From NCBI GenBank assembly GCA_044376575.1, contig JBILKR010000006.1, positions 24,211 to 88,210 of the forward strand: 64,000 nt of DNA, read 5' to 3'. The translations under genes and the position numbers were made by a program. Shown here piece by piece: positions 4,491-63,052 of the stretch. How positions within the stretch are numbered: position 1 is the stretch's first letter; each line of letters starts with the position of its first letter. Source of the stretch: Flavobacteriales bacterium. Its GTDB lineage: Bacteria > Bacteroidota > Bacteroidia > CAIKAF01. The notes beneath the pieces are model-generated. The model was not told where the DNA came from. It ran no database searches and was given only the letters and a program-made list of their open reading frames with translations.

Positions 4491-6293
4491 ATGACCAAAC
4501 CAATCTATTTTTCAACTTGTTTCTTCTTTTTTTTATTGGTGTTACAGACTGATTTCATTTATTCAAATAACATTCAGGTAACCAACGTAACGCTTACATC
4601 ACAAAACACATCTGCAGGAGCAAACAACAGCGCTAATTATACCCATATTCAATTTGATGTGCAGTGGGAAAATTCCTGGAGATTATCCTCCGGTCCATCA
4701 AACTGGGATGCCGCATGGATATTTGCAAAATTCAGGGTGGGTGGATCCGATCCACAGTTTAGTAATGTGAGTAGCAGTGGTACAACCGTTACCGTAAGCA
4801 GCACTTCTCAGCTTAGGGTAGGAATGCCTGTACGTGTAACCTCCGGCACAGGAACACTTGTTACCAATACTACCATTTCAAGTATTACCAACAGCACTCA
4901 ATTTGTTGTTAGCAATACTCCAACTGTTGCATTGCTTAATGCTACAATTATTTGTACTAGAGTCTGGGAGCATGCCTGGCTTAATAATTCAGGGCATACA
5001 GCAACAAGTGGCACAACCATTTCAAATGGACTTGTAACACCATCGTCTTCATTTAACGCTACTACCAATCCTGTAATTGGTATATTTATATATAGAGATG
5101 CAAACGGAAGCGGAACATTTAATGGAACCGGAACCACCCTTCGCTGGAACTATGGTGCCCATGGAATAAAAGACAATCAGATTGTAGATGTAAGAGTTTA
5201 TGGTATTGAAATGGTATATATTCCACAAGGAAGTTATAGTGTAGGCGATGGCTCTGTGACCAGTGTAGCAGGAAACTTCAGGGATGGCGGTAGCAATATC
5301 CCATTTTTAATTAGTAGTGAGGCCGCAATAACATTGGGAGGAACAACCGCTGGCAACTTAGCCAATAACAATAATAGCGGAATGCATACAGCAGATGATT
5401 TTAATAATACAACAACACAAAATCTTCCTGCAGAATTTCCAAAAGGATACAATGCATACTATTGCATGAAGTATGAAATTTCACAACAACAATGGATTGA
5501 TTTTTTTAATACACTGATTCCACGCCAAAAAACTACTCGTGATATAACTTTTAATAAAGGAACCGATGCTTTGCATTATTCCAATAATAATGTCAACTGG
5601 GACGCAACCAATACATTTTCAGATGCTACGCTCAATAATGGCACTTATGGTAATACCGCAATGACTTGGCTTAGCTGGGCTGATTTTGCGGCATACCTGG
5701 ATTGGGCGGGATTACGGCCAATAACAGAATTGGAATACGAAAAAATATGTCGCGGAACACAAACACCTGTCGCAGATGAATATCCATGGGGAACGAATAC
5801 GATTTATACAATATCGGCGCTTAATTCTTATTATTCTATCAGCAATGAAGGGGAAGCCAATGAAGGTATTTCAGCCAATTACAGCACTACATCCGGGAAT
5901 GCACATTATGGAATAGTTTATAATTATGATGGGGTGAGACGAGTAGGTGTGTTTGCAGCCAATGCCAGCAATACAGGAAGAATTACCTCCGGAGCAAGTT
6001 ATTACGGATTAATGGAGTTGGCTGGTAATGTTTTTGAACGCACCATTTCTGTTGGCAGATCAGAAGGACGATCATTTACCGGAGCACATGGAAACGGGGC
6101 TCTTACTAGCGCTGGTGATTACAATGTAACAGGATGGGGATCTACCTCTGGTACACAATCCGGTGTTCGAGGTGGTGGATACGATGACATCTCATCCCGT
6201 TTAAGAGTATCAGATCGATACCTTGCATCAAGCAGTGCATTGAGTGCCGGAGGTTTTAAAAGTGGAGGAAGAGGAGGAAGAACGGCTCCGTAA
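4491..6293 (+). CDS. Secreted protein with an N-terminal S/T/N-rich beta-rich region and a C-terminal FGE-sulfatase (SUMF1/formylglycine-generating-enzyme-like) domain.
   Basis: Signal peptide MTKPIYFSTCFFFFLLVLQ. The FGE-like core starts at MVYIPQGSYSVGDGS, contains YPWG, and ends with RGGGYDDISSRLRVSDR (RGGSW-type). The C-terminus is a Gly/Arg-rich tail (GGRGGRTAP). Confidence 0.6.
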   Translation: MTKPIYFSTCFFFFLLVLQTDFIYSNNIQVTNVTLTSQNTSAGANNSANYTHIQFDVQWENSWRLSSGPSNWDAAWIFAKFRVGGSDPQFSNVSSSGTTVTVSSTSQLRVGMPVRVTSGTGTLVTNTTISSITNSTQFVVSNTPTVALLNATIICTRVWEHAWLNNSGHTATSGTTISNGLVTPSSSFNATTNPVIGIFIYRDANGSGTFNGTGTTLRWNYGAHGIKDNQIVDVRVYGIEMVYIPQGSYSVGDGSVTSVAGNFRDGGSNIPFLISSEAAITLGGTTAGNLANNNNSGMHTADDFNNTTTQNLPAEFPKGYNAYYCMKYEISQQQWIDFFNTLIPRQKTTRDITFNKGTDALHYSNNNVNWDATNTFSDATLNNGTYGNTAMTWLSWADFAAYLDWAGLRPITELEYEKICRGTQTPVADEYPWGTNTIYTISALNSYYSISNEGEANEGISANYSTTSGNAHYGIVYNYDGVRRVGVFAANASNTGRITSGASYYGLMELAGNVFERTISVGRSEGRSFTGAHGNGALTSAGDYNVTGWGSTSGTQSGVRGGGYDDISSRLRVSDRYLASSSALSAGGFKSGGRGGRTAP

Positions 6294-6298
6294 AATGT

Positions 6299-8035
6299 AT
6301 GAATTGTATGTCTTTAAAATTTAATATTACTTATCTTCTTTTTTATTTTACTGCGGCTGTTTCATCTATTGCCCAAAATGAGCCATATCTCGGTGGCAAT
6401 GGGAGGGGTGATGTAGCAACACAATTGAGTACGGAATATCTTGATGGCACAACAGCTACTCCATACAGATTAAATTTCTTTAACCAGCCCCCTCCAACTA
6501 CTTATATTGGCAATACCTTCAACTGTAATGTTGAGATCATTTATACGGATTCAACACGGGTAACTACTGCTTCCAATGCAATAACCCTCTCAATTGGGTA
6601 TAATCCCGGGAACAGTACTCTTTCCGGCACTGCCGTTCTAAATGCAACAAACGGGCTGGCAAGCTATACCGGATTAGGATTAAATAATCCCGGAACTGAT
6701 TATACATTGACAGCATCTGCTTCAGGATTTTCAAATATTACATCCCATCCGTTTGATATATATTCAAATATTTATTTAGGAGGTGTCGGACGAGGTGATG
6801 ATGTGGATGATACAAACGCAACCCTACTTGGCAAAAATGCATGGGTAAGCACCACTACCACAGACTGGGCTACTACTTCAAATTGGATGCATGACCAGAT
6901 TCCGGCTCATAACGAGAATGTATTAATTGCAGAATGGGCCACAAAAAATTTACATCTAGATCAATCACGCACCATCAGAAATTTAGATTTTAATCATGTA
7001 GGTCTGAAAGTAGTTCTTAATGACGTTGACCTTACAATTACAGGAGATATTACTTCTGCTGATGCTAGCAATTATATTCGATCAAACGGTACGGGAAATA
7101 TCAAGCGAACAGTAAATCAAAGTCAAGCATTAGAATTTCCCATCGGGAACAGTACTTACAATCCATTAACCATAACCAATAACTCAGGATCCTCTGATTT
7201 ATTTTCAGTTCGTGTTTCAGATCAGATTGAATTCCCTACTTCCTTTTTATCGCTGGCTTCTTATGTAAACCGAACCTGGAATATTTCGAAAGCAAATCCC
7301 AATGGTGGTCCCGGCGTTGATTTAATTTTCAACTGGAATGATCAGGAAGAAGTAGGTACACTCACTATCCCTGTATTAAATCACCATAACGGATCAGTAT
7401 GGGAAGTGGCCAGTCCTGGAACTAACACGTCTTCATTAAACACTTTAACCTATACCGGATATACCGGAAGTTTTTCTCCTTTTGCCATTGCAGATCAAAA
7501 CACTCCCCTGCCCGTAGAACTGGATTATTTAATCACCACATGCCATCAATATCGTCCCGTTATTCAATGGCAAACTTTTAGCGAAATCAATAACGATTAT
7601 TTTTTGATTGAACAATCAGATGATCAAAATACATGGGAAAAATTAGATATAATTGATGGTGCCGGGAACAGCAATCAAATGATTGCGTATCAATTTGAAT
7701 ATACAAAACCACTTGATGCAACTCTTTACATTCGTTTAAAACAAGTTGATTATAACGGAACAACTGAAATCATCGGAACAAAATCATTGATACCGTGCGA
7801 TGATGAAAGTAACATCCAGGTTTATCCTAATCCTACGCATGGCGAAATTCACTGGAGCGGATTCGATGCGCTCTCTTCAATATCTATTATCAATCAATTT
7901 GGAATAACGGTTTCAACTTTTACCTCATCTGCTGATGGTAACGGATCGGAAATAATCTCTGTATCACCCGGTGTTTATTATATTCAGGGAATAAAAAACA
8001 AAACGATAACAACTGAAAAACTTATTGTTTACTAA
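6299..8035 (+). CDS. Secreted protein with T9SS type-A C-terminal sorting domain, probably co-transcribed with the 4491 gene (5-nt gap).
   Basis: Signal peptide (FYFTAAVSSIAQ). The C-terminus IQVYPNPTHGEIHW...GVYYIQG...KLIVY matches the Por_Secre_tail pattern. It has two copies of a GG-x-GRGD motif. Confidence 0.6.
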   Translation: MNCMSLKFNITYLLFYFTAAVSSIAQNEPYLGGNGRGDVATQLSTEYLDGTTATPYRLNFFNQPPPTTYIGNTFNCNVEIIYTDSTRVTTASNAITLSIGYNPGNSTLSGTAVLNATNGLASYTGLGLNNPGTDYTLTASASGFSNITSHPFDIYSNIYLGGVGRGDDVDDTNATLLGKNAWVSTTTTDWATTSNWMHDQIPAHNENVLIAEWATKNLHLDQSRTIRNLDFNHVGLKVVLNDVDLTITGDITSADASNYIRSNGTGNIKRTVNQSQALEFPIGNSTYNPLTITNNSGSSDLFSVRVSDQIEFPTSFLSLASYVNRTWNISKANPNGGPGVDLIFNWNDQEEVGTLTIPVLNHHNGSVWEVASPGTNTSSLNTLTYTGYTGSFSPFAIADQNTPLPVELDYLITTCHQYRPVIQWQTFSEINNDYFLIEQSDDQNTWEKLDIIDGAGNSNQMIAYQFEYTKPLDATLYIRLKQVDYNGTTEIIGTKSLIPCDDESNIQVYPNPTHGEIHWSGFDALSSISIINQFGITVSTFTSSADGNGSEIISVSPGVYYIQGIKNKTITTEKLIVY

Positions 8036-8037
8036 AC

Positions 8038-8070
8038 AAAAAAGGTAGCATTTCTGCTACCTTTTTTATT
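8038..8070. terminator. Bidirectional rho-independent terminator between convergent genes.
   Basis: Hairpin GGTAGCA-TTTC-TGCTACC flanked by an A-run upstream and a T-run downstream. Confidence 0.7.
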
Positions 8071-8086
8071 TGATCATAATAATTTA

Positions 8087-10669
8087 TTATTGATACTCTG
8101 GATCTAATTCAGGCTCAGCCTCATATCCATCTTCATTTGTAGGCCCTGTAGGCGCATCAGCCGGACCATCTGTGGATACATTTTCTACAACTCTAGAGGA
8201 ATGTATATAACCTTCTACGCCATCTTCCATACGTACTTTTTTATATTCACCTTCAGTTCCAATCACCTGAAAGGTAGTACCTTCATAAACCTCTTTAATA
8301 ATTTCTCCATCTGGAGTTGCACGTAAATTAGAGTATCCATCCGGATCAGAAACAGTATACCATAAACCATCAGTTGTTTCTGCTGTTGTTTTTTCTGGTT
8401 CAGATGGTATTGAAAGATCTTTTCTTCGATTAACAAGAACATTTAATGAATCAACACTCTTCTTCAATTTAGGAATACGCTGAGCCCAAAATTCAGCATA
8501 GGTTTGAGTTGTGCCTTCAATTTTAAAATTACTGTTATGATTAATTTTTAAAAGCACTTCATCTATATTCATCATGCGTTCTAATGAAGATTCTTCCGCA
8601 TGATTCTCTTCCGTTTCAGATGACATATTGTTCATTCTCTTTTCTGATTCAAAAGCAACGAAACTTGTATTTTGAATAGTATCAGCAGCAGTCCAAGTTA
8701 TAAAATCAAGAATAAGTTTTTCATTAACCAAATTCTCTGCATGTAAATTATAAGCATCTTTTTTAGGTTTGAGATACATAAAATATACAACAGAAAATGC
8801 CAGCGATAATATCCAGATTAAAATAGAAAGGCTCACCTGCCATGTTGTAATAAACTGCTTAAACTTACCTTTATATCTTGCTAAGTTTTCATCAATTTTT
8901 GTACTGTATTCTTTAACCAATTGTACTTCTTCTCGCTCTTCCAGTTTATCTTCCAAAGACATTGCCTTTAATGCCCCAACAACCTCATCAGCTGTTTCAC
9001 GATTTGAAATCACGAAATCATCATCATTTAAAGCCGGAAGCTCCTTTGATGACATCAGTTTAAAGAGTTTAGCTTTTTCTGAAGCGGTATATTCTTTTAA
9101 GCCAGAAATTCGATTAGCTAATACTAATTTTTCTTCTTCTTCAATCATTCCATCGGCTTTGGCTATATAAATAAGCATTTTAATTTCATTATACTTATCT
9201 CTTTTCTGACGATAAGATTTTGTGATAAATGCTTCAGCCCATTTTGATTTATAAATTAACCATATATTTTTTAATGAAAAATGACTAACTGCAGTAGGAT
9301 TACTATGAAACATAACCTCATTTGCACTCGCTGGATCAACAAAAGAAACCTTATGCTGTGTACTTGTAAGAATATGGAGATACCCCAAAGTCTTCGCCGG
9401 GATAACATCATAATATACCGACTCTAAAAAAAGCTTAGGATAATCATCTTTACTTAAACCAGATGCCTCTTCAATTTTTCTGCAAACATCTCTTGTAAAA
9501 TCATCGTAATTGTTAGAGATTGATCCATTATTATCAATATAAGTTTCAGTTAATACTAATCCATCTTTATCTAAATACTTAAACCCTGATTCAGGCGTAT
9601 TATCAAGTGTTGGAATGATTTCGTTTTGATACATGTAATATTCTGCATCTATATCCTGAGGCTCCAATTCAACATAAACCATTTCACCTAGTTTACCATG
9701 CCCCTTACAATTTTTACAAGTAATCACACCGCTACCTTCACAAAAATCTGTACCCGATACAGAGTCATATAATTTACCTACACCATACTTTGAATTATAC
9801 TTTTTGCTGCATGGACATTTCCCATTTCCACCAAATGAACTACAAGTTGGGCAATCCACCTTGCCTTTATTACAATGAATACATCCCTTGCCGTCGCAAT
9901 CATAATGATCTATTTTTCCATTTTTACAAGCAAAATGTACATTACCTCCCGGACCTCCATTTTTATTAGGAAATACTTTACCCGGACATTTAATTTGACC
10001 AGTTCCACTACATGTAGTACACTCTGATTTTCCTTGACCATGACAAGGATTACAATCTTTAGAAGAAGTTAGGTCTGGAATAAAATACAAAGGCTGATTT
10101 TCACTTGGCGATGTTCCATTAAATCGAACATCCATCGCTGAAAAATAATTACTTTTTAATGATGAATACTCAGATGAACCCGAAGAGGATGATTCAAATA
10201 AACTTGCAAACTTTGATTTGGATCCGATATTTTCACCAAAAACAAACGGAGCTCCATTTTTAGATGCCCATTTTTGGAAGCTTTCCTTTAAATAAGACAT
10301 CCCTTCTATCTTGTCTGCAATACCCGGAGATGATGGAGCAGAAATATTATCAGATGAAATATTTGTTTCTGAACGTTCAATTTTTGAAATAAAAGAGGGA
10401 TCCACCTCAGCAGCCCTTCCACTTCTTCCATCATAATTAGTGCCAAACTCATAAGAAACATTATCATCTAGTATAAACTTTACTCTTTTCGGTTTATAGC
10501 TTACAAATCTTGCGTGATATCTAATGTAAAAAACATGATTATTATCTGCATCTGCATCTACAATCATCTGATCATATTTTTCCTGAAAGCCACTTTTTAA
10601 CTGGTCAACCAATTTATTTTTATCAATCTGGTTCGCAGATGATATTTTTTTCTCAACAGATTGTTTCAT
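8087..10669 (-). CDS. Large multi-domain membrane protein of unknown function. Domain order: unknown N-terminal region, DnaJ-type CxxCxGxG zinc-finger repeats, TerB-like domain, single TM helix, SH3-like domain, acidic tail.
   Basis: Cys-rich block CNPCHGQGKSECTTCSGTGQIKC...CIHCNKGKVDCPTCSSFGGNGKC...CEGSGVITCKNCKGHGKLG at about aa 205-330. TerB-like signature IYIAKADGMIEEEEKLVLANRISGL at about aa 500-580. TM segment WQVSLSILIWILSLAFSVVYFMYL. SH3b-like segment WYTVSDPDGYSNLRATPDGEIIKEVYEGTTFQVIG. No HPD J-domain motif is present. Confidence 0.55.
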   Translation of the reverse strand: MKQSVEKKISSANQIDKNKLVDQLKSGFQEKYDQMIVDADADNNHVFYIRYHARFVSYKPKRVKFILDDNVSYEFGTNYDGRSGRAAEVDPSFISKIERSETNISSDNISAPSSPGIADKIEGMSYLKESFQKWASKNGAPFVFGENIGSKSKFASLFESSSSGSSEYSSLKSNYFSAMDVRFNGTSPSENQPLYFIPDLTSSKDCNPCHGQGKSECTTCSGTGQIKCPGKVFPNKNGGPGGNVHFACKNGKIDHYDCDGKGCIHCNKGKVDCPTCSSFGGNGKCPCSKKYNSKYGVGKLYDSVSGTDFCEGSGVITCKNCKGHGKLGEMVYVELEPQDIDAEYYMYQNEIIPTLDNTPESGFKYLDKDGLVLTETYIDNNGSISNNYDDFTRDVCRKIEEASGLSKDDYPKLFLESVYYDVIPAKTLGYLHILTSTQHKVSFVDPASANEVMFHSNPTAVSHFSLKNIWLIYKSKWAEAFITKSYRQKRDKYNEIKMLIYIAKADGMIEEEEKLVLANRISGLKEYTASEKAKLFKLMSSKELPALNDDDFVISNRETADEVVGALKAMSLEDKLEEREEVQLVKEYSTKIDENLARYKGKFKQFITTWQVSLSILIWILSLAFSVVYFMYLKPKKDAYNLHAENLVNEKLILDFITWTAADTIQNTSFVAFESEKRMNNMSSETEENHAEESSLERMMNIDEVLLKINHNSNFKIEGTTQTYAEFWAQRIPKLKKSVDSLNVLVNRRKDLSIPSEPEKTTAETTDGLWYTVSDPDGYSNLRATPDGEIIKEVYEGTTFQVIGTEGEYKKVRMEDGVEGYIHSSRVVENVSTDGPADAPTGPTNEDGYEAEPELDPEYQ

Positions 10670-10726
10670 AGAGGTTTTTTTGTGTTACATATTAGTTGGC
10701 TAAATTAGTAAAAATTCTAAATTTTG

Positions 10727-10756
10727 TTAAAAATAAAAAAGGGGGCATAGCCCCCT
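10727..10756 (-). terminator. Rho-independent terminator of the minus-strand sdh operon.
   Basis: Hairpin GGGGGC-ATA-GCCCCC, followed on the minus strand by TTTTTTATTTTT. Confidence 0.7.
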
Positions 10757-10783
10757 CAATATAGAATTGCAAATATTAATTAT

Positions 10784-19858: not shown

Positions 19859-19913
19859 TCGAACTATTTTTTTTACAATATGACAATGATTGCATATATT
19901 TGATTATCAAGTT

Positions 19914-22472
19914 ATGAAATCAAAATATTCCATCGTTCTGTCTTTCATCTTCTGGATACATGCAATTGTTGTATTGCATGGACAGACAACAGTGTTTATG
20001 GATAATTGTAATGTTTTGGGAGGATGGACAAACACTGGAAGAATTTTTCCTGCGAATTTACCCGGATATGACTGGTTTTCAGTGGATCCCATTGTTCCGA
20101 CAGATGATCATACAGGAGGAGGAAATTGCTTTTATGTAAACGGGAACAACAATTATCTGCAAGCCGGTGGTGGCAGTTACATTATTTATCAACTTGTATC
20201 TCCATCAATAAACTTAACCGGATTTAATAATACACGATTAGAGTTCTGGATGCAGATGCGCAGCGAAACAGGCAACTGGGATGGTGGATATGTTGAATGG
20301 TCGCACAATGGAGTAACCTGGACAAAAATTACTGCAGCTCAAATGTGTATTCCATTTGACGGGCCAATGTCTCAAAATGCTTCTTCTACTCCTTATTATC
20401 CCTTAAATACACCGGCATGGTTTAATCCGAAATTAGTATGGACTCGTGTTTTGGTTGATATTTCTGCCATTGACAATGTTCCTTCGTTTAGGCTGAGATT
20501 TACTTTTCATTCAGATGAAGCATTGGCTGACCGAGGATGGACAATTGATGATATCCATATTGTAAGTGTTGCAATACCACAAGTGCAAGGTAATGCTATC
20601 ATTATTCCTGACAATGATATTACGCCGATTATAGCAGACGGAACTGATTTTGGACAGGTTCCTATCGGACAATCCACCACGCAAACATTTTTTATTCACA
20701 ATATCGGAGAAGCACCGCTCACGCTCACAGGCACACCATACGTTACTGCAACCGGAACAGGATTTACAATTCTTAGCCAACCGGCCACCAATGTGATTCC
20801 TGCCGGAGGATCCGTACCATTTACTGTAGAATTTTCACCTCCGTCTGCCGGAACATTCAACGGAACAATTAATATTCCAAACAGCGATAATTTTTCTGCC
20901 TGTACACCACCTAATCCATACAATTTTGCGGTTAGAGGAAAGAACTTAAATACAGCACCTTATCTTACCAATCAAATTCCGGACACAAATATCTGTGCCA
21001 ATGCAAATAATGTTCAGATAAATTTTTCTTTCAATGACCTGGAACAGGCTCCAGGGAGTATAACATTTACTGCTAATTCCAGCAATCCTGCTGTAGTTGC
21101 CAATGCCAACATTAATATTTCTACTGTAGGGAATAACGGCACTATTACAATTACACCAACGCCCCCCGCCATTGGCTCTGCTACTATTTCAATTACATTG
21201 AATGACGGACAAACCATCAACAATGACTCAACATTTACATTCAATATTAACTTTGGTGATACACTACCGCCCGTCGCCTTGTGCCAAAATCTGCAGGTAC
21301 AACTGGATGCGCAGGGGTTTGGAAGTATTACTCCTCAGCAGGCGAACAATGGAAGTTCAGATGATTGCCAGATTGCACAAATGACCCTAAGCCAAACACA
21401 ATTTACCTGTGCTGATGTTGGAAATATACCTGTTGATTTTACAGTTACTGACTTAACAGGAAACAGCAGTGTTTGCCAGTTAATGGTTACGGTACTGCCT
21501 CCTCCTATATTAATACAACAGACCATCAGTTCTTACAATGGTTTTGAAGTATCATGTAATCAGGGTAACGATGGCTTTATTCAATTACAGGTGAGCGGAG
21601 GTTGTGCTCCTTATCAATATGCATGGAGTAATAATCCCGCAAATAATTCACCTAATGCAAACAATCTGATTGCCGGTAACTACACCGTTGTTATTACAGA
21701 CATTTCAGGACAATCACAAAGTGTAAACATTACACTAACCTCTCCCACTGCTCTTACAGATGCTTCCATGATGGTTCCAATTTCTTGTGGAGGTGCTATA
21801 GACGGAGAAATTCATTTAAGTGCAGCAGGAGGAATAGCTCCATATATCTTTAGTACAGGACCGGATTTACAAAATCTTCCTCCCGGAAATTATAATTATT
21901 CTATTACCGATGCAAACAACTGCGTGGTCGATGGCAGTTATTTACTGATTAATCCCAATACCATATCAATTACTGGAGATACATATTATTCCATGTATTG
22001 CGGGAAAGCAGTTTCGCTCGACATAACAGCCAATGGTGGTTCCGGAATATTGAATTATCAATGGAACAACATAGATTTTCTGGATTGCTCAACCTGCGAA
22101 GATCCTGTAGCTACGCCTCCGGGGTCAATGCAATTTGTAGTGACTGTTAATGATGAGAACGGATGCAATAATCAATATGCAGTGATTGTTGAAGTGGAAT
22201 GTAATTTATTTATTCCCAATTCTTTTACGCCTAATACAGATGGTAAAAACGAAAAATTTCATATATATACCGGAGGTATTAAAGCCCTTGAATTTCGAAT
22301 CTTTAACCGTTGGGGAGAAGAATTATTTTTTACTGATGACGAAACACAGGGATGGGATGGAACCTACAAAGGCAATTTAGTTCCTGAAGGAACGTATGTG
22401 TACAGCGTATGGTTGATAATGCCTGATGGAACAGAAAGAGATCTTAAAGGGATGTTGCAGTTGATCAGATAG
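19914..22472 (+). CDS. Large secreted adhesin-like protein with SprB/HYR-like repeats and a type-B T9SS C-terminal domain (gliding-motility-associated CTD).
   Basis: Signal peptide MKSKYSIVLSFIFWIHAIVVLHG. Repeats of the form ...ISGQSQSVNITLTSPTAL.../...CGGAIDGEIHLSAAGG.... The C-terminus FIPNSFTPNTDGKNEKF...RWGEELF...GWDGTYKG...EGTYVY is a CHU_C/type-B CTD signature. Confidence 0.65.
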   Translation: MKSKYSIVLSFIFWIHAIVVLHGQTTVFMDNCNVLGGWTNTGRIFPANLPGYDWFSVDPIVPTDDHTGGGNCFYVNGNNNYLQAGGGSYIIYQLVSPSINLTGFNNTRLEFWMQMRSETGNWDGGYVEWSHNGVTWTKITAAQMCIPFDGPMSQNASSTPYYPLNTPAWFNPKLVWTRVLVDISAIDNVPSFRLRFTFHSDEALADRGWTIDDIHIVSVAIPQVQGNAIIIPDNDITPIIADGTDFGQVPIGQSTTQTFFIHNIGEAPLTLTGTPYVTATGTGFTILSQPATNVIPAGGSVPFTVEFSPPSAGTFNGTINIPNSDNFSACTPPNPYNFAVRGKNLNTAPYLTNQIPDTNICANANNVQINFSFNDLEQAPGSITFTANSSNPAVVANANINISTVGNNGTITITPTPPAIGSATISITLNDGQTINNDSTFTFNINFGDTLPPVALCQNLQVQLDAQGFGSITPQQANNGSSDDCQIAQMTLSQTQFTCADVGNIPVDFTVTDLTGNSSVCQLMVTVLPPPILIQQTISSYNGFEVSCNQGNDGFIQLQVSGGCAPYQYAWSNNPANNSPNANNLIAGNYTVVITDISGQSQSVNITLTSPTALTDASMMVPISCGGAIDGEIHLSAAGGIAPYIFSTGPDLQNLPPGNYNYSITDANNCVVDGSYLLINPNTISITGDTYYSMYCGKAVSLDITANGGSGILNYQWNNIDFLDCSTCEDPVATPPGSMQFVVTVNDENGCNNQYAVIVEVECNLFIPNSFTPNTDGKNEKFHIYTGGIKALEFRIFNRWGEELFFTDDETQGWDGTYKGNLVPEGTYVYSVWLIMPDGTERDLKGMLQLIR

Positions 22473-55560: not shown

Positions 55561-55606
55561 ACTTCTTCAGCCAAAATTAATGATATCAAACTTGAATATA
55601 TTTAAA

Positions 55607-58600
55607 ATGAAACAGAAACTTTTCTGTTCGTTTTTTGTATTGGTATTATTGATGAGTGGTTTAACCTCATTTGCTCAGACAGACACCACTAATCATGATC
55701 AAATCGGTGTTACAAATCCTTCAAACATAACAGAAGAAGTTCAGTTTGACGAATCCAACAATCAGTATATCGTTTTAAAAAAAGTAGGTAATATCTTATT
55801 AAGCACTGATTATTACTCTGCAGAAGATTATCGAAAAAAAATGTTGAATCAGTCGGCACTTGATTACTGGAGAGAAAAAGAAAAAAGTAGGGCCGGAGGA
55901 AACGATGCAAACAGCCTGATTCCACCAATCAACATTAAAAATGAATTGTTTAAAGGAATTTTCGGAAGCAATAAAATTGAAATCAGGCCTCAGGGATCTG
56001 CAGAATTAATTTTAGGTGTTCGCGTCAACAAAACGGAAAATCCCAATATTCCATTACAACAGCGAACTGTTACCACATTCAATTTCGATCAGAATATCCA
56101 GTTAAATGTATTGGGGAAAATTGGTGATAAAATTCAATTAAACGCGAATTTTAATACCAAGGCCTTATTCAATTTTGAGAATCAGATGAACTTAAAATAT
56201 GAAGGTGGGGAAGATGATATCCTTCAATTGCTTGAGTTTGGTAATGTATCTCTGCCTCTTACCGGAACATTGATTCAGGGTAGTCAGTCGTTGTTTGGAG
56301 TAAAGAATAAACTAAAGTTTGGAAAGCTGGAAATCACTTCTATTTTTACACAACAGCAAGGTCAAAAACAAAATATTACTGTTGAAGGCGGAGCACAAAT
56401 TACCAAATTTGAAGTATCCTGTGCCAACTACGAAGCCAACCGACACTATTTTCTGGGAGATTATTTCATGCATCAGTTTGATAATGCCAACAAGACATTA
56501 CCATATGTAACATCGCCTGTGTATATCACACGTATTGAGGTTTGGGTAACTAACAGAATCAATGCCACAGAGAATGTTCGAAACATTGTTGCCATTTTAC
56601 CTCTTGGCGAATCTTTGCCTAACACCAATATTTTTCCTCAAAATGAAGGATCAACTTATAACCCTCAATCCCTTCCACCAAGTATTCGTGATATCACATC
56701 ACAAACATTATTCAACCAACTGCAAAACGGGCTGGAAATAGAAAAACTGGCCAATGCCAGATTACTGAACGCAAATGAATTTAGTTTTGATCCCTACCTT
56801 GGATACATTTCATTAAATCAGTCGCTCAATGCTGACGAGGTATTAGCAGTAGCATTTCAATATACCGCTGGCGGAAAAACCTATCAGGTAGGAGAATTTG
56901 GAACAGACCTGCAAGCACCCAATGCACTTGTTGTAAAATTATTAAAGGCGTCCAATTTTGATGTAACCAAGCCCAACTTTCCATGGATGATGAAAAATAT
57001 CTATTCTATTGGAGGTTATAACATCGGGCAGGATGATTTTACGTTGAACATTTTATATCAGGATACCGAAACCGGAGTAAAAGTAAACTACTTCCCAAAT
57101 GCAACAGGTGTAAGTGGTATTCCTCTGATTCGTTTATTTAATCTTGACCGTTTAAATCAGCAAAATGATTTAGTGTTTGATGGATTCTTCGATTTTATTG
57201 AAGGCAGAACAATTAAAGCACAGAACGGAAGAATTATTTTCCCTGTTCGAGAGCCTTTCAGCAAAAATTACTTGTCTAATGTTTTTCAGGAAGCCAATGC
57301 CTCGAACCCAATTTTCAATCCGGAAGAATATGCTGATCGTTATGCATTTGATACTCTATACAAAGTACAACAACAATTAGCAGAATTAAATCAGGAAAAG
57401 AATCGATTTTATATTGCCGGAAGTTATAAAGGTGCTTCTGGAAGTGAAATCTCACTCAACGCTTTTAATGTGCCGCAAGGTTCTGTAACAGTTACAGCGG
57501 GTGGACAAACTTTATCAGAAAATGTGGACTATACTGTAGATTACGCTGCAGGCAGGGTTCGCATCATCAATGAAAGTATATTAAATTCAGGACTGCCCAT
57601 CAACATTTCTCTTGAAAACAATGCAACATTCAATATTCAGCAAAAACGATTAATCGGAACACATATTGATTATAAATTCAATAAGAATTTTCAGATTGGT
57701 GGAACCATCATGAATCTTCAGGAAAGGCCACTTACTCAAAAAGTGGATTTGGGAAATGAGCCTGTTGATAATACCATCTGGGGATTTGATGTAAATTATT
57801 CAACCACTTCAAATTTTATTACCCGCCTCGTTGATAAAATTCCAGGAATTAATACAAAAGCACCGTCACAGATTTTATTAAACGGAGAGTTTGCTCATAT
57901 GATTCCCGGATATAATCCGGTGATTGATCAGAATGGGGAGAATGGAGTTTCTTATGTAGATGATTTTGAAGGTGCAGAAACACCAATTGATATTCGTAAT
58001 CCATTCATGTGGAAGCTAGGTTCTGTTCCTGAAGGAAATCCAAGGTTTCCCAATGGTGATGTATTTAATAATTTACAATACAACTTCAACCGTGCACGAC
58101 TGAGCTGGTTTACCATGGATCCGCTGTTTTATCGATTTAATACATTAACGCCTCAAGCGATTAAAGATAATCCGACGGTTATGACCAATAACTATATTCG
58201 TGAAGTTCAGGTTACCGAAGTATTTCCTGGTTATCAGCCGCCATTACAGCAAGGTATTCAGCCTCAACAGCTCGTATTGGATATGCATTATTATCCTGAT
58301 GAAAGAGGACCTTACAACTACGACGTAAATAATTTTGATGAATCGTTTCTCGATAAATTAAAATTGAAAAATCCCAAAACCAATTTTGGCTCAATGATGC
58401 GCCGAATGGAAACAACAGATTGGGACGCAGCGAATGTATCATATATAGAATTCTGGATGATGGATCCGTTTGATGAAAATGACCTAAATCAAATGAAAGA
58501 ATGGGAAGACGGGATTGGATCTACCAATCAAAATACTACCGGTGATGGAGGAGGTGACTTTATCATTCAAATAGGAAACATGAATGAGGATATCCTGAAA

Positions 58601-61600
58601 GATGGAAGAATGAGTTTCGAAAACGGGATGCCAACACCAACCGATCCGAACCGACCGCTTATTAATACTGCGTGGGGTAAAGTTCCGCTGCTTCAACCCA
58701 TCAATCAGAATTTTGATAATGATCCTGCAACCCGCGAATTGCAAGACATTGGATACGACGGACTAAACGATGTGGATGAAAAAGATTTCTTCACTAATTT
58801 TATTTCAGATGTTCAAAATAAATTCGGCGGACCAGGAAATCCAGTATTTGACTCCATCGCAGCCGATCCGTCAGGAGATAATTTTTCTCACTACAATGCC
58901 GAATCTTTTAACTCTGTTGGCGGTTTTGTTCCAGGATTCAACTATCCACATTCACGATATAAAAAGTTTATCGGTCCTGAAAAAAATTCTCCTGCAAGCA
59001 ACATTAATTTTTCATACGGACAGGTTCCCAACACAGAAGATGTAAACAATAACTTTACACTCGATAAACCTGAAGGTTATTATCAATATTCCGTAAGTCT
59101 CCGCCCCGGTGATTTGAACACTATTGGAGAAAATTTTATTACAGATATCTTAAACACTACTGTTCCTGTAAACATTAACGGACAGATTCAAAATAAAAAT
59201 GTAAAATGGATTCAGTTCAGAATACCTGTAAGAACTGAAGATAAGGAGCAATTTGGAACTATCAACGATTTCAGATCGATTCGTTTTATGCGTATGCTGC
59301 TTCAAGGTTTCCCGGATGATATTTATGTACGACTTGCGACCTTACAACTGGTGCGCGCAGATTGGAGAACCTACACTTCAGAACTATGGGATCCGGATGC
59401 TTTCATTACGCCAAATGCATCATCTTTTAATTCTACTACAGTAAATATTGAAGAGAACACGAGGAAAGAACCATTCCCTTATGCACTCCCTCCGGGAATT
59501 ACCCGTGAAATTGATCCGGCGAATCCTCAGTTACAGCAGTTGAATGAACAGTCACTGGTGTTAAATGTAAATGGCTTGCAAGACGGAGAAGCAAAAGGTG
59601 TATATAAGAACACACAATATGATATGCGTGCATACAAGTATTTAAAAATGTTTGTACACGAAGAACAGGTTTTAAATAATCCGCTCGACAGTCACGACCT
59701 AACATTGTTTGTTCGCCTGGGAATGGATGCCTCCGAAAACTATTATGAAGTTGAAGTTCCGCTAACGCCCTCTGATCCTTCCATCCAGCCAGTGGATCCG
59801 AATCCAAATGATCAGATTCCCAACGATGATCCTGTGTATAAAAGAAACCTTTGGTTAGCACAAAATAATCTGGTGATTGACTTGCAAAGTCTCCCTGATT
59901 TAAAATTAAAACGAAACTCACTTGGTCTGCCCTCTAACCTGCCATTCCAAGATACCGTTGACGGACGAAGAATTACTGTTGTTGGTAACCCTAACATTGC
60001 AAATGTTCGGTCGATGATGATTGGAGTCAGAAACCCGCATCAGAAACATAATCCATGGCAAACAGGTGCAAACGGAACAAAAAAAGATGACGGTCAATCT
60101 AAAACAGCACAGGTTTGGGTAAACGAATTAAGACTTACTGATTATTTTGAAGCCGGCGGCTGGGCTGCAAAGGCAAGAGGACAAGTAAATCTCGCTGACT
60201 TCGGACAAGTATCAATGGCAGTATCACATACTACTTTTGGATTTGGGAATATAGATCAAAAGCCTCAGCAACGCAGTCGAAACAACACTTCTACATTTGA
60301 TGTTACAACCAGCTTCGAATTAGGAAAATTCTTTGGCTCTAAATCCGGTGTTACCATTCCTTTATTCTTTGGGTATTCAACTAAGGTTGATGATCCTCAG
60401 TTCAACCCCCTTGATCCCGATGTATTGTTCCGCGATGCTTTGGATGTATTGCCAACTGATCAGGCGAGAGATTCATTGAAACAGATGTCGCAAACCCTCG
60501 GAACAAAAACAACTTTCAATATTACCAATATGAAAAAGACCCGCACTGACAATAAGCGGAAACCAAAGATATGGGATATTGAAAACTGGGATGCCTCATA
60601 CTCTTATGTAAAAGAAACATTTCGTGATATCCGAACTGAATACAACAATACAACTGAACAAAGGGCATCGCTTGGATATACATTCACACCGCAACCTCAA
60701 CCATGGGAACCTTTCAAAAAATCAAAAGGGCTGAAATCAAAATGGCTGAAATGGGTAAAAGACTTCAACTTTACCTGGTCGCCCAAAAGACTTGCATTCA
60801 GGGCAAATGTTGTTCGTGATGTCAATGAATTTTTACTACGCAACACTACGGATTATCCTCTATTAATCATACCGACATATCGCAAAAACTTTACCTGGAC
60901 CAGAACATACGAATTCCAGTACAGCCCGTTCAAATCATTGAATTTTACATTCAGTGCAAATAACAGTTCACGAATTGATGAACCTGAAATGAAGTTAGAC
61001 TCTTCCGTGACCCCTCGTGTACAGTTTTTTGGAAGAAATACCGGTTATACGCACAACTGGGACGTAAGCTATTCGTTGCCACTAAGTAAAATTCCACTTA
61101 CTGACTGGATTACTGCTTCCATTGGCTACAGTGGAAATTACAAATGGACGGCCGGGAACATGGAGCGAAATCCAAATGGTGATTTTACCATGGGAAGATG
61201 GGGTAATATTGCCCAAAACGCAAATACACTGAAAGGTAATTTGCAATTGAACATGACTACGCTTTACAATAAAATTCCATGGATTAAAGATTTGAATAAG
61301 GCCAAGGGCGGACAAAAGAAAGAAGCAACGAAACAAGGGGCCGGAGGAAAAAAACCTGAAGAAAAGAAGAAAGAAGGAGAAGAGGATGAAGAAGAGGAAA
61401 AAGAAAAAGTGAAAATTAAAATTGTAAAATGGGAAAAAGCAGGAGTTAACTTTAAAGCAGGAAGAAAAAAATTATTCAAGCATAACCTAAAAACAGAAGA
61501 TGTTACATTTAAAGTAACTACACCTGATGGAAAAGTAATTAAGGGAGAGACACAAGTGGTGGATAAGAAAAAAGCGAGATTTATTGCGAGTGAAGATGCA

Positions 61601-63052
61601 AAAGACGCAATGGTTGTTATTGAAGGAAAAATTGAGAAGAAGCCTTTCCGCTGGATGGTGATTCCTGAAACAATTGCAAGAATTGTAACCGGCTTCAAAA
61701 ACTTTTCAGTAAGCTACAATGAATCCAATGGAACTACGCTTCCAGGCTATAAAGCAGGTACAACACTTTTGGGAATGGATATGTATAATCCTTCACTCGG
61801 ATTTGATTTTGTGATGGGACGACAGTTCAGCGATGTGGACCTTGTCAACAATGTAGTAAAGAATGCTTGGCTTATCAGAGACAGTACAATGAATGTGCTG
61901 TTTATGCGCACACACTCTTCCAATCTTACAGCAAATGCTACTTACGAGCCCTTCAAAGGATTCAGGGTTACGTTTACTGCCAATCGCACTTATGTAGAGA
62001 ATTTCCAGTCGAATTACAGATACATCCCGAGTGTGGGAGATTTTATTTCACAAAATCCATTATCTATGGGTAACTTCTCCATGTCTTACATGATGATAGG
62101 GACATCATTTGGTGGAGATGGTCAGAATTTCAGTTCGCGCTGGTTTAGCAATATGCTGAATTCTCGTTCAGTTATTTCAAATCGACTGGCGCTACTCAAT
62201 CCCAATGCCAATCCGGTAAATGGATCGCTTTACCAGTCGGGTTATCAGGAAACTCAGCAAGATGTATTAATGTATTCTTTCCTTTCTGCATATACAGGAG
62301 GAGATCCGGGATCTATGGAACTAAATCCATTCCCGATGATTCCTATTCCAAACTGGAGAATACAATTTGACGGATTAAAAGATATTCCTTTCATTAAAAA
62401 AGTAATGAAGAATATCGTATTGTCTCATGCCTATCAATCTACTTATAGTTTAGCCGGGTTCCAGTCAAACTATGTATATAACGACAAAAATCCTCAGGAT
62501 TGGCTGAATAACCCATGGGATCAAACCTTGAGAGATGACAATGGGAATTTCATCTCCCGGTATTTCTTAAACAGCATTTCACTTGTTGAGTCATACAATC
62601 CATTGATTAAAATTGATATGACCTTCAATAATAGTTTAACGGCAAATGTGGAAATCAAATCAAGCAGAAATATTTCATTGAATTTCCCTAACCAGCAAAT
62701 CACAGAGAATAATACATTTGAAATAATTGCAGGTGCCGGCTATATCATTAAAGATGTAAAATTACCATTCAGGATTGGAGGTAAAGAAATTAAAAACAAC
62801 CTGAACATCCGATTTGATTTTGGGTTAAAAGACAACTCAACGGTAATCAGAAAAATTTCTCCGGTAGTTGAACAGGTTACGGCAGGTCAGCGAGCCATTA
62901 CCATAAAAGGATTTGCAGAATACACCATTAACACCTCATTAAGTGTGCGACTATTTGTTGATCAGATCATCAATAATCCTTTTGTTGCAAATCAATTCCC
63001 CACAGCCAATACCAATGCCGGATTAAGTGTTCGATTTACATTGACACAATAA
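55607..63052 (+). CDS. sprA: Cell-surface protein SprA (T9SS outer-membrane translocon, giant beta-barrel).
   Basis: About 2480 aa with a signal peptide (MKQKLFCSFFVLVLLMSGLTSFAQ). The size, beta-rich composition and position immediately downstream of ruvA match Bacteroidota sprA. The start is placed at the second Met. Confidence 0.8.
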   Translation: MKQKLFCSFFVLVLLMSGLTSFAQTDTTNHDQIGVTNPSNITEEVQFDESNNQYIVLKKVGNILLSTDYYSAEDYRKKMLNQSALDYWREKEKSRAGGNDANSLIPPINIKNELFKGIFGSNKIEIRPQGSAELILGVRVNKTENPNIPLQQRTVTTFNFDQNIQLNVLGKIGDKIQLNANFNTKALFNFENQMNLKYEGGEDDILQLLEFGNVSLPLTGTLIQGSQSLFGVKNKLKFGKLEITSIFTQQQGQKQNITVEGGAQITKFEVSCANYEANRHYFLGDYFMHQFDNANKTLPYVTSPVYITRIEVWVTNRINATENVRNIVAILPLGESLPNTNIFPQNEGSTYNPQSLPPSIRDITSQTLFNQLQNGLEIEKLANARLLNANEFSFDPYLGYISLNQSLNADEVLAVAFQYTAGGKTYQVGEFGTDLQAPNALVVKLLKASNFDVTKPNFPWMMKNIYSIGGYNIGQDDFTLNILYQDTETGVKVNYFPNATGVSGIPLIRLFNLDRLNQQNDLVFDGFFDFIEGRTIKAQNGRIIFPVREPFSKNYLSNVFQEANASNPIFNPEEYADRYAFDTLYKVQQQLAELNQEKNRFYIAGSYKGASGSEISLNAFNVPQGSVTVTAGGQTLSENVDYTVDYAAGRVRIINESILNSGLPINISLENNATFNIQQKRLIGTHIDYKFNKNFQIGGTIMNLQERPLTQKVDLGNEPVDNTIWGFDVNYSTTSNFITRLVDKIPGINTKAPSQILLNGEFAHMIPGYNPVIDQNGENGVSYVDDFEGAETPIDIRNPFMWKLGSVPEGNPRFPNGDVFNNLQYNFNRARLSWFTMDPLFYRFNTLTPQAIKDNPTVMTNNYIREVQVTEVFPGYQPPLQQGIQPQQLVLDMHYYPDERGPYNYDVNNFDESFLDKLKLKNPKTNFGSMMRRMETTDWDAANVSYIEFWMMDPFDENDLNQMKEWEDGIGSTNQNTTGDGGGDFIIQIGNMNEDILKDGRMSFENGMPTPTDPNRPLINTAWGKVPLLQPINQNFDNDPATRELQDIGYDGLNDVDEKDFFTNFISDVQNKFGGPGNPVFDSIAADPSGDNFSHYNAESFNSVGGFVPGFNYPHSRYKKFIGPEKNSPASNINFSYGQVPNTEDVNNNFTLDKPEGYYQYSVSLRPGDLNTIGENFITDILNTTVPVNINGQIQNKNVKWIQFRIPVRTEDKEQFGTINDFRSIRFMRMLLQGFPDDIYVRLATLQLVRADWRTYTSELWDPDAFITPNASSFNSTTVNIEENTRKEPFPYALPPGITREIDPANPQLQQLNEQSLVLNVNGLQDGEAKGVYKNTQYDMRAYKYLKMFVHEEQVLNNPLDSHDLTLFVRLGMDASENYYEVEVPLTPSDPSIQPVDPNPNDQIPNDDPVYKRNLWLAQNNLVIDLQSLPDLKLKRNSLGLPSNLPFQDTVDGRRITVVGNPNIANVRSMMIGVRNPHQKHNPWQTGANGTKKDDGQSKTAQVWVNELRLTDYFEAGGWAAKARGQVNLADFGQVSMAVSHTTFGFGNIDQKPQQRSRNNTSTFDVTTSFELGKFFGSKSGVTIPLFFGYSTKVDDPQFNPLDPDVLFRDALDVLPTDQARDSLKQMSQTLGTKTTFNITNMKKTRTDNKRKPKIWDIENWDASYSYVKETFRDIRTEYNNTTEQRASLGYTFTPQPQPWEPFKKSKGLKSKWLKWVKDFNFTWSPKRLAFRANVVRDVNEFLLRNTTDYPLLIIPTYRKNFTWTRTYEFQYSPFKSLNFTFSANNSSRIDEPEMKLDSSVTPRVQFFGRNTGYTHNWDVSYSLPLSKIPLTDWITASIGYSGNYKWTAGNMERNPNGDFTMGRWGNIAQNANTLKGNLQLNMTTLYNKIPWIKDLNKAKGGQKKEATKQGAGGKKPEEKKKEGEEDEEEEKEKVKIKIVKWEKAGVNFKAGRKKLFKHNLKTEDVTFKVTTPDGKVIKGETQVVDKKKARFIASEDAKDAMVVIEGKIEKKPFRWMVIPETIARIVTGFKNFSVSYNESNGTTLPGYKAGTTLLGMDMYNPSLGFDFVMGRQFSDVDLVNNVVKNAWLIRDSTMNVLFMRTHSSNLTANATYEPFKGFRVTFTANRTYVENFQSNYRYIPSVGDFISQNPLSMGNFSMSYMMIGTSFGGDGQNFSSRWFSNMLNSRSVISNRLALLNPNANPVNGSLYQSGYQETQQDVLMYSFLSAYTGGDPGSMELNPFPMIPIPNWRIQFDGLKDIPFIKKVMKNIVLSHAYQSTYSLAGFQSNYVYNDKNPQDWLNNPWDQTLRDDNGNFISRYFLNSISLVESYNPLIKIDMTFNNSLTANVEIKSSRNISLNFPNQQITENNTFEIIAGAGYIIKDVKLPFRIGGKEIKNNLNIRFDFGLKDNSTVIRKISPVVEQVTAGQRAITIKGFAEYTINTSLSVRLFVDQIINNPFVANQFPTANTNAGLSVRFTLTQ

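Follow-up and report, generated by a model that had tools for sequence, protein, structure and literature searches.

TerB domains are found in several validated anti-phage systems and in the envelope-stress co-chaperone DjlA of E. coli. Bunzi, Shango, and Dionysus are validated defence systems with TerB proteins; TerB associates peripherally with membranes, and for the defence TerB proteins 'membrane surveillance' serves as the working hypothesis (bioRxiv 10.1101/2022.05.11.491447, 10.1101/2025.09.30.679545). In DjlA, a transmembrane (TM) segment, a TerB-like domain, and a J domain occur together, and the protein feeds into the Rcs pathway of envelope stress (PMC11709261). The protein analysed here is the 860-residue product of a single gene in a 64,000-nt stretch of contig JBILKR010000006.1 (positions 24,211 to 88,210; assembly GCA_044376575.1, Flavobacteriales bacterium); this whole stretch is referred to as the window. 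The window protein was composed of an N domain, a putative zinc-knuckle array, a middle (Mid) domain, a TerB domain, a single TM helix, a helical stalk, an SH3b domain, and an acidic tail, in this order. It represents one subfamily of a sizeable unnamed family of membrane-associated TerB proteins and is not a singular invention. In this family the N domain, zinc array, Mid domain, and TerB domain form one evolutionary unit.

When the window protein was compared with other TerB proteins (PF05099; PDB codes 2jxu, 2ou3, and 2h5n; Bunzi, Shango, and Dionysus), the all-alpha fold, two motifs of the ADG..E..EK type, and the membrane-proximal position were shared. However, its TerB domain was the last part of a four-domain block containing the zinc array and two undescribed domains, and the gene had no partner genes as in Shango, Bunzi, and Dionysus, no ter operon, and no PADLOC match. 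DjlA may be regarded as the nearest working analogy, with an inner-membrane anchor and a TerB-like domain joined to a DnaJ-derived module. In DjlA the TM segment is N-terminal and a C-terminal J domain recruits DnaK, whereas the window protein has a zinc finger of the cysteine-rich (CR) type, no J domain or HPD motif, a TM helix placed after TerB, and a large periplasmic domain; it was not classed as DjlA-type.

The reference architecture of the DnaJ CR domain has four CxxCxGxG motifs and two Cys4 zinc sites, an outer one (motifs 1 and 4) and an inner one (motifs 2 and 3). CxxCxGxG knuckles without a J domain, as in the window protein, occur in BSD2 (PDB code 6ekb), ORANGE-type DnaJE, and Bacillus Anti-TRAP (PDB code 3lcz). 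These proteins act through protein binding and not through catalysis, and ORANGE proteins have only the CR zinc finger and no J domain. Their two zinc sites are held in a compact unit of ~60 aa, whereas the array of the present family is nested between domains and has 1 to about 8 sites; that of the window protein was partly degenerate, with similarity below the Pfam cutoffs. The SH3b domain resembled those of NlpC/P60 peptidases and endolysins in its SH3 fold and a profile score above the cutoff. Unlike them, it was not linked to a hydrolase and formed the periplasmic end of an otherwise cytoplasmic protein.

The conserved core and its family

A profile of nine close sequences was scored against 1.84 billion cluster representatives, and matched 434 proteins at E ≤ 1e-3, 173 at E ≤ 1e-10, and 71 at E ≤ 1e-30. 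The E-values of the 71 best representatives ranged from 1e-231 to 1e-30, and many matches were proteins of ~550 aa aligned in one piece over profile positions ~204-590. Four segment profiles (N, Zn, Mid, and TerB) were then run with hmmsearch on 158 representatives; the sequences used to build them came from the family itself, the window protein among them. The complete N, Zn, Mid, and TerB block was present in 66 of them, namely the window protein and 65 others. Among these 66 members, 37 were soluble, 23 had a TM segment with a C-terminal extension, and 6 were tail-anchored. The TM-anchored members carried exchangeable periplasmic domains (SH3b, SPOR, TonB_C, YARHG, or PEGA).

The members were named in their sources only as 'hypothetical protein', 'uncharacterized tellurite resistance protein B-like protein', or 'TerB family tellurite resistance protein', one such named member being from Microscilla marina. 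Neither Pfam nor NCBIfam held a specific name or model for the family, and no paper on it was found; whether the 2012 TerB survey (Anantharaman et al.) lists the TerB and zinc-finger architecture was not checked. An earlier note, made from the sequence of the window alone, had regarded the domain combination as not known to occur together. The family was indeed unnamed and without a model, but the combination was a recurrent block and not a one-off.

In the alignment of 34 family sequences (A2), the only invariant residues were Cys206, Cys209, Cys318, Cys321, Asp506, and Lys514, and residues Glu513, Asp574, and Glu581 were conserved in at least 90% of the sequences. Because of these invariant and near-invariant residues, an outer zinc clasp and two acidic TerB motifs are the probable constant functional elements of the family.

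The TerB domain contained two acidic motifs. One was AKADG-x-IEEEEK, given in full as AKADGMIEEEEK (residues Asp506, Glu513, and Lys514), and the other was SLED-x5-E, here SLEDKLEEREE (residues Asp574 and Glu581). All five residues were invariant in a TerB sub-alignment of 19 sequences. PF05099 has a gathering cutoff of 24.4 bits, and the window protein alone scored below it, at 13.4 bits (E = 0.095); DUF533 was also below its cutoff. All nine close homologues gave weak matches to PF05099 (best E = 0.0012), and homologous relatives exceeded the cutoff, with 42.0 bits for P0026, 38.1 for P0097, 32.4 for P0019, and 30.4 for P0021. When the family profile of the segment was compared with PDB sequences, the three best matches were the TerB-type structures 2ou3, 2jxu, and 2h5n. 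On the basis of these profiles and the fold comparison, the segment was accepted as TerB. The domain thus lay where the earlier note had placed it, sub-cutoff in the window protein itself and borne out through its relatives.

Sixteen of the 17 cysteines of the window protein were located within residues 206-321 (nt ~9705-10054), a clustering far above chance expectation. They formed three exact CxxCxGxG motifs (starting at residues 206, 217, and 318) and two further CxxC motifs (residues 263 and 273), together with several single conserved cysteines, and 11 cysteines of the array were invariant among the nine close homologues. The invariance of the first and last CxxC across the family is consistent with an outer zinc clasp. 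The array was built from tandem 11-residue CxxCxGxGxxx units, and across the family it ranged from one four-cysteine site to about 17 CxxC (2-17 CxxC). In the minimal form, CxxCNGxG was followed after about 14 aa by CxxCKGxG, which gave one site only, as in P0096-P0107 (proteins of ~440-450 aa). In the larger arrays, extra units were inserted between the same invariant first and last motifs, up to about 17 CxxC in P0073 and P0098. The array looks like an arm of evolvable length.

The relation of this array to DnaJ was apparent only at the level of motifs and weak profile matches. The window protein did not match PF00684 (DnaJ_CXXCXGXG; gathering cutoff 32.7 bits) at E ≤ 10. Weak matches were obtained for three of the nine close homologues (best E = 0.17), and the wider relatives reached at most 28.7 bits. 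The arrays of relatives gave E-values of ~1e-6 to 1e-3 for DnaJ_CXXCXGXG, BSD2_CRD, GRXCR1-2_C, and Anti-TRAP, all below the cutoffs. The regular array of P0019, compared with PDB sequences, matched only BSD2 (E = 0.006) and Anti-TRAP (E = 0.02), and the family profile aligned the first two motifs and the last motif to the CR domain of E. coli DnaJ (PDB code 1exk; E = 0.88). These results point weakly to a DnaJ-CR-like, J-less array, nearest to BSD2 and Anti-TRAP. The array was modelled without metal at a predicted local distance difference test (pLDDT) score of 50-68, with low confidence over the geometry of the Cys4 sites. No HPD motif was found anywhere in the window protein, and no DnaJ model of Pfam matched it. 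Thus the DnaJ-type zinc finger proposed earlier was retained in its CxxCxGxG motifs but not in a PF00684 match, and the proposed absence of a J domain agreed with the absence of HPD.

The N and Mid domains were well defined in an AlphaFold model of residues 1-605, built with 34 diverse relatives (pLDDT 83.8; predicted template modelling score 0.74), in which both domains were mostly above 90. This model replaced a run on the whole protein with nine close homologues, in which the N-terminal 480 aa had a pLDDT below 50. The conserved motifs of the N domain were ..RYDQM.., ..Y.Y..Y.., and QP.Y..P, the last directly ahead of the first cysteine. The Mid domain opened with a long beta-hairpin immediately after the last CxxCxGxG, and its conserved motifs were ..NG....YD.., YP.L..E.vYYdviP, and Y.HiLT...H..S...FHS.PT. 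When 29 segments of the N and Mid domains were scanned permissively against Pfam, no family was matched by more than one segment, and no convincing counterpart was found among solved structures for either domain. Both are undescribed domains, and because they contain no invariant polar residues they are probably not enzymes. The first 200 aa had been reported as unrecognisable, and no Pfam or NCBIfam model matched the N domain of the window protein; it was nevertheless a conserved domain of the wider family, present in at least 66 representatives. A Ser-rich, disordered loop of low confidence was observed in the N domain at residues ~140-165 (nt ~10175-10252). In Flavobacteriia-type homologues (P0008, P0009, P0010, and P0011) the loop was expanded to a long, acidic insert containing 8-10 Asp in a row at several points.

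Close full-length relatives were rare and came from freshwater Bacteroidota, with nine clusters among 5.8 billion sequences at 42-57% identity. A genome scan with the close alignment identified five loci in metagenome-assembled genomes (MAGs) of uncultured Bacteroidota, three of them freshwater by their sample codes, and a scan of viral contigs gave no relatives. Besides the 11 cysteines, the alignment of the nine homologues showed conservation of the ADG/EEE block and the TM segment and of many residues in the N and Mid regions. In one close homologue, a TonB_C domain was added after SH3b. The fifth of the genome-scan loci, L009, held a homologue with 43% identity to the window protein over residues 302-766 (tblastn), on a 3-kb contig (CALPVI020000329.1) binned in an 'Actinomyces viscosus' MAG. 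This contig was probably mis-binned, because all other close relatives were from Bacteroidota. Relatives P0002, P0006, and P0007 had a conserved C-terminal segment of ~60 aa with the pattern ..VSD.DGEY..IDG..YI.. (alignment A1, columns ~820-900).

Defence-type contexts were found in distant branches, and fusions of this type were confined to branches with about 18-25% identity to the window protein. P0064 (L014:16-2439) had a tail anchor and, on the N-terminal side of the core, a TIR domain (Pfam TIR_2; PADLOC ThsB, E = 1.6e-30). P0127, also tail-anchored, had an N-terminal EAD11 ('effector-associated domain') at 29.9 bits against a cutoff of 26. The contigs of both were too short for neighbours, those of P0127 being below 3 kb. 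P0030, P0067, and P0077 were soluble proteins with a helical N-extension of ~150 aa before the core, and their genes started -4 to +3 nt downstream of a gene for a ~620-aa FtsK/SpoIIIE-type ATPase at three independent loci. The ATPases were 34-49% identical to each other and matched the PADLOC models SspH, mad8, and HerA. This pair is a candidate two-gene conflict system, possibly a three-gene system with the 201-aa downstream open reading frame (ORF) in L022. P0034, tail-anchored with an N-extension of 330 aa, followed a 402-aa PNP_UDP_1 protein that matched a PADLOC effector model (L017:5731-16718 and L018). The C-terminal tail of the PNP protein (..HHGSGDNVAGNKIVSGK) resembled the N-terminus of P0034 (..HTGSGDNVGGDKIENHI), and the peptide GSGDNV.G.KI was shared at the adjoining termini. 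Three large unannotated genes (811 aa, 565 aa, and >1824 aa) followed P0034 on the same strand. The TIR, EAD11, FtsK-ATPase, and PNP contexts are typical of conflict systems, and they fit the published place of TerB proteins in Bunzi, Shango, and Dionysus.

Membrane anchor and periplasmic region

Residues 610-632 were the sole hydrophobic segment of the window protein. The flanks of the TM segment were compared in 22 members that bear one: 70 Lys/Arg and 4 Asp/Glu in total were counted in the 15 residues on its N-terminal side, and 48 Lys/Arg and 61 Asp/Glu in the 15 residues on its C-terminal side. The C-terminal parts of these members were acidic and nearly free of cysteine. The domain types that followed the TM segment in relatives (SH3_3, SPOR, TonB_C, YARHG, PEGA, and Fib_succ_major) were all extracytoplasmic or cell-surface types. 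The flank charges and these domain types strongly support a predicted topology with the N-terminus inside and the C-terminus outside. The cytoplasmic TerB and zinc array and the periplasmic SH3 domain proposed in the earlier note agree with both lines of evidence. One TM helix had been placed at nt 8810-8880; the helix itself stood, but that range overlapped it only partly, the true segment being about 35 nt further downstream.

The TM helix continued into the periplasmic stalk, for which helices were predicted at residues 602-662, 670-681, 702-708, and 724-753 in the AlphaFold run on the whole protein (pLDDT 74-86 in the helical parts). Residues Trp659, Asp663, Thr664, His711, Tyr724, and Trp728 of the stalk were conserved in close homologues. 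The SH3b domain was matched by SH3_3 (PF08239) at 28.6 bits against a cutoff of 27 over residues 781-827, and matches were obtained in six of the nine close homologues (best E = 6e-11). The top Foldseek matches included the SH3b domains of PDB entries 4krt, 2krs, and 4r0k with a probability of 1.0 and E-values of only 0.02-0.05; these were from endolysins and NlpC/P60 proteins. Many further proteins that are secreted or anchored also contained the 'YTVSDPDGYSNLR' subtype of SH3b, and a hydrophobic segment, either N-terminal or internal, was present in about two-thirds of those checked. Both the SH3b domain and the acidic Pro/Glu-rich tail (residues 831-860) were thus recovered where they had been proposed.

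The Pfam matches to Methyltransf_3, Sigma_reg_N, and Fib_alpha and a match to the fimbrial structure 7fcf were rejected as noise or as TM or coiled-coil matches, Sigma_reg_N covering the TM segment only. Direct comparison of the window protein with PDB sequences gave nothing significant, and an NCBIfam scan gave nothing useful.

Function of the window protein and alternative explanations

The leading explanation, with a probability of roughly 0.4, is a single-pass inner-membrane protein that acts as a non-enzymatic trans-envelope sensor or scaffold and connects a TerB and zinc-finger module close to the membrane with the cell wall. The block would be tethered to the membrane right after TerB, and the helical stalk would lead to the periplasmic SH3b domain and acidic tail. 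For the ligands, signal, and output of the window protein we infer the following. The SH3b domain, or SPOR, TonB_C, YARHG, or PEGA in relatives, would hold peptidoglycan or another envelope component. TerB would be located at the inner leaflet, with its two acidic motifs engaging either a divalent metal or the surface of the membrane. A rigid surface for protein binding would be provided by the zinc-knuckle arm, whose base the first and last CxxC would hold together. The protein would then report or respond to perturbation of the cell wall or membrane, without catalysis of its own.

Several observations weigh against this sensor or scaffold function. The zinc binding is putative, and the array was the least confident part of the predicted model. 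Not only peptidoglycan but also proteins can be ligands of SH3b domains, and in P0002, P0006, and P0007 an unrelated C-terminal segment stood in place of SH3b. No neighbour was conserved across the loci of close homologues, and neighbours were shared only between near-identical genomes. In addition, about half of the family was soluble, and so the core function needs no envelope link.

The CxxCxGxG repeats also fit a membrane-tethered, J-less DnaJ-like holdase or assembly chaperone, whose array would bind unfolded or specific clients as BSD2 and ORANGE-type DnaJE do, maybe with DnaK as in DjlA. BSD2 and Anti-TRAP were the only solved sequences that resembled the array of a relative, weak matches to DnaJ_CXXCXGXG and BSD2_CRD were obtained, and the array was flanked by beta-strands as in DnaJ (..YFIPDLT..C..C.G.G... 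and ...C..C.GHG.lgemvYVEl). ORANGE proteins have been described as DnaJE1 chaperones, and in DjlA a chaperone module is joined to a TM segment and a TerB-like domain (PMC11709261). This explanation was considered unlikely: both the J domain and the HPD motif are absent from the window protein, no DnaK/Hsp70 gene was conserved beside any member in the loci examined, the PF00684 cutoff was never reached, and a repeat number that varies from 2 to 17 CxxC is easier to reconcile with a spacer or an interaction arm than with a defined site for client binding. The same dense array of zinc-type cysteines could alternatively be a switch that responds to oxidation or metal, like those of Hsp33 or zinc anti-sigma factors, with TerB as a metal-binding module linked to tellurite-type stress. 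The acidic TerB motifs were conserved across the family, and the TerB family has historically been linked to tellurite or metal stress (Anantharaman et al. 2012, as cited in PMC11709261). However, no ter operon genes, sigma factor, or regulator were located near the gene, the protein had no DNA-binding or signalling output domain, and Sigma_reg_N matched the TM segment alone, which makes a metal or redox stress sensor very improbable. Little probability was likewise given to a structural scaffold of the envelope or division machinery, in which peptidoglycan at certain positions, for example the septum, would anchor a cytoplasmic assembly. SPOR binds septal glycan, and the periplasmic SH3b of the window protein, the SPOR domain of P0016, the TonB_C domain of another relative, and a soluble relative near mreB and mreC at L016 fit such a role. 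Against it, the close subfamily was rare, synteny was not conserved, many members were soluble, and no division or elongation genes were adjacent within the window.

A defence function would make the gene a single-gene anti-phage or abortive-infection system, in which the TerB and zinc core senses infection at the membrane and the TM and periplasmic part is the effector or the sensing site. It draws on the TerB proteins of Bunzi, Shango, and Dionysus, the TIR and EAD11 fusions of P0064 and P0127, the operons with FtsK/HerA-type ATPases at three independent loci, the PNP-type effector-like protein adjoining one member, the G+C content of the gene slightly below that of its surroundings, and its varying location between genomes. 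But neither a relevant PADLOC match nor a recognisable effector domain was found for the window protein itself, its gene had no partner, the neighbourhood was of the housekeeping type (SdhCAB, DnaG, cargo of the type IX secretion system (T9SS), and SprA), viral contigs held no relatives, and the defence fusions belonged to distant branches. The defence hints of those branches do not apply directly to the window gene, and this function is distinctly unlikely. The earlier note had suggested a candidate envelope-stress or defence-associated factor; fusions and partners of the defence type were seen in distant branches only and not in the subfamily of the window protein. It is similarly doubtful, and improbable on balance, that the N, zinc-knuckle, Mid, and TerB block is an unrecognised sensor or adaptor module of bacterial conflict systems, plugged into TIR, EAD11, FtsK/HerA-ATPase, or PNP contexts, with the window gene as its self-contained trans-envelope version. 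If so, phage- or toxin-induced damage of the wall or membrane would be detected by the periplasmic SH3b domain of the window protein, and the response would follow at the inner membrane.

The family gives TerB a fixed context, formed by a zinc arm of evolvable length and two undescribed domains. Its natural series of soluble, tail-anchored, and trans-envelope forms, TIR or EAD11 fusions, and FtsK operons could reveal the stimulus that TerB senses and the route by which its signal is relayed. The whole family is therefore of more interest than the window gene alone, which encodes an accessory membrane protein in a freshwater lineage of uncultured Bacteroidota and is of modest practical importance until a phenotype is found.

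Gene setting and feature coordinates

Terminators were found on either side of the gene, including the one that closes the sdhB-like operon, and the gene is therefore a separate transcription unit, in agreement with the stand-alone position proposed from the sequence. Its promoter must fall within ~70 nt (10670-10738). The downstream hairpin was common to this gene and the convergent gene for a T9SS cargo protein (6299-8035) and can terminate both, because A and U runs flank it. The features are listed in Table 1.

Table 1. Positions of the features in the window and of the ATPase-linked loci of the family
Feature	Position	Strand	Details
Complete stand-alone ORF	8087..10669	minus	860 aa; ATG start; coordinates include the stop codon
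N domain	10076..10669	minus	residues 1-198; undescribed, alpha+beta; pLDDT about 90 outside the Ser-rich loop
Cys-rich zinc-knuckle array, DnaJ-CR type (putative)	9695..10075	minus	residues 199-325; partly degenerate; Gly/Asn-rich insert
Mid domain	9260..9694	minus	residues 326-470; undescribed, beta-rich; pLDDT 85-96
TerB domain	8870..9244	minus	residues 476-600; all-alpha; two acidic motifs
Single TM helix	8774..8842	minus	residues 610-632; from hydropathy; N-in/C-out predicted
Periplasmic helical stalk	8375..8773	minus	residues 633-765 (~125 aa); acidic; no Cys; long helix continuing from the TM helix
SH3b domain	8180..8362	minus	residues ~770-830; Bacteroidota 'YTVSDPDGYSNLR' subtype
Acidic Pro/Glu-rich C-terminal tail	8090..8179	minus	residues 831-860; 8 Asp/Glu, 0 Lys/Arg; pLDDT <50; predicted disordered
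Bidirectional intrinsic terminator	8038..8070	both	17-pair hairpin; -21.1 kcal/mol; z = -6.7; A run before, U run after
Terminator of the upstream sdhB-like gene	10739..10757	minus	8-pair G+C-rich stem, then T run
FtsK-ATPase branch loci	L020:536-4542, L021:136-4142, L022:682-4691, L024:3-2826		P0077, P0067, P0030

The setting of the gene in the window was of the housekeeping type, with genes for SdhCAB, DnaG, an M24 peptidase, an ABC-F protein, T9SS cargo, and SprA, and its chromosomal location differed between genomes. The G+C content over window positions 8001-10500 was ~33%, compared with 37-41% in the flanking genes, which is at most suggestive as a mild hint of a foreign or accessory origin and is not decisive. 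A second ORF of 860 aa (19890-22472) was considered as a paralogue and rejected, as it encoded an unrelated SprB-repeat/CHU_C protein. T9SS features were abundant in window regions 4491-8035, 19890-22472, and 55580-63052. The region 4491-8035 contained two adjoining genes, for an FGE-sulfatase-like protein and a Por_Secre_tail protein (T9SS cargo), and the region 55580-63052 contained the gene for the 2490-aa SprA translocon. These T9SS features confirm that the window is part of a Bacteroidota chromosome.

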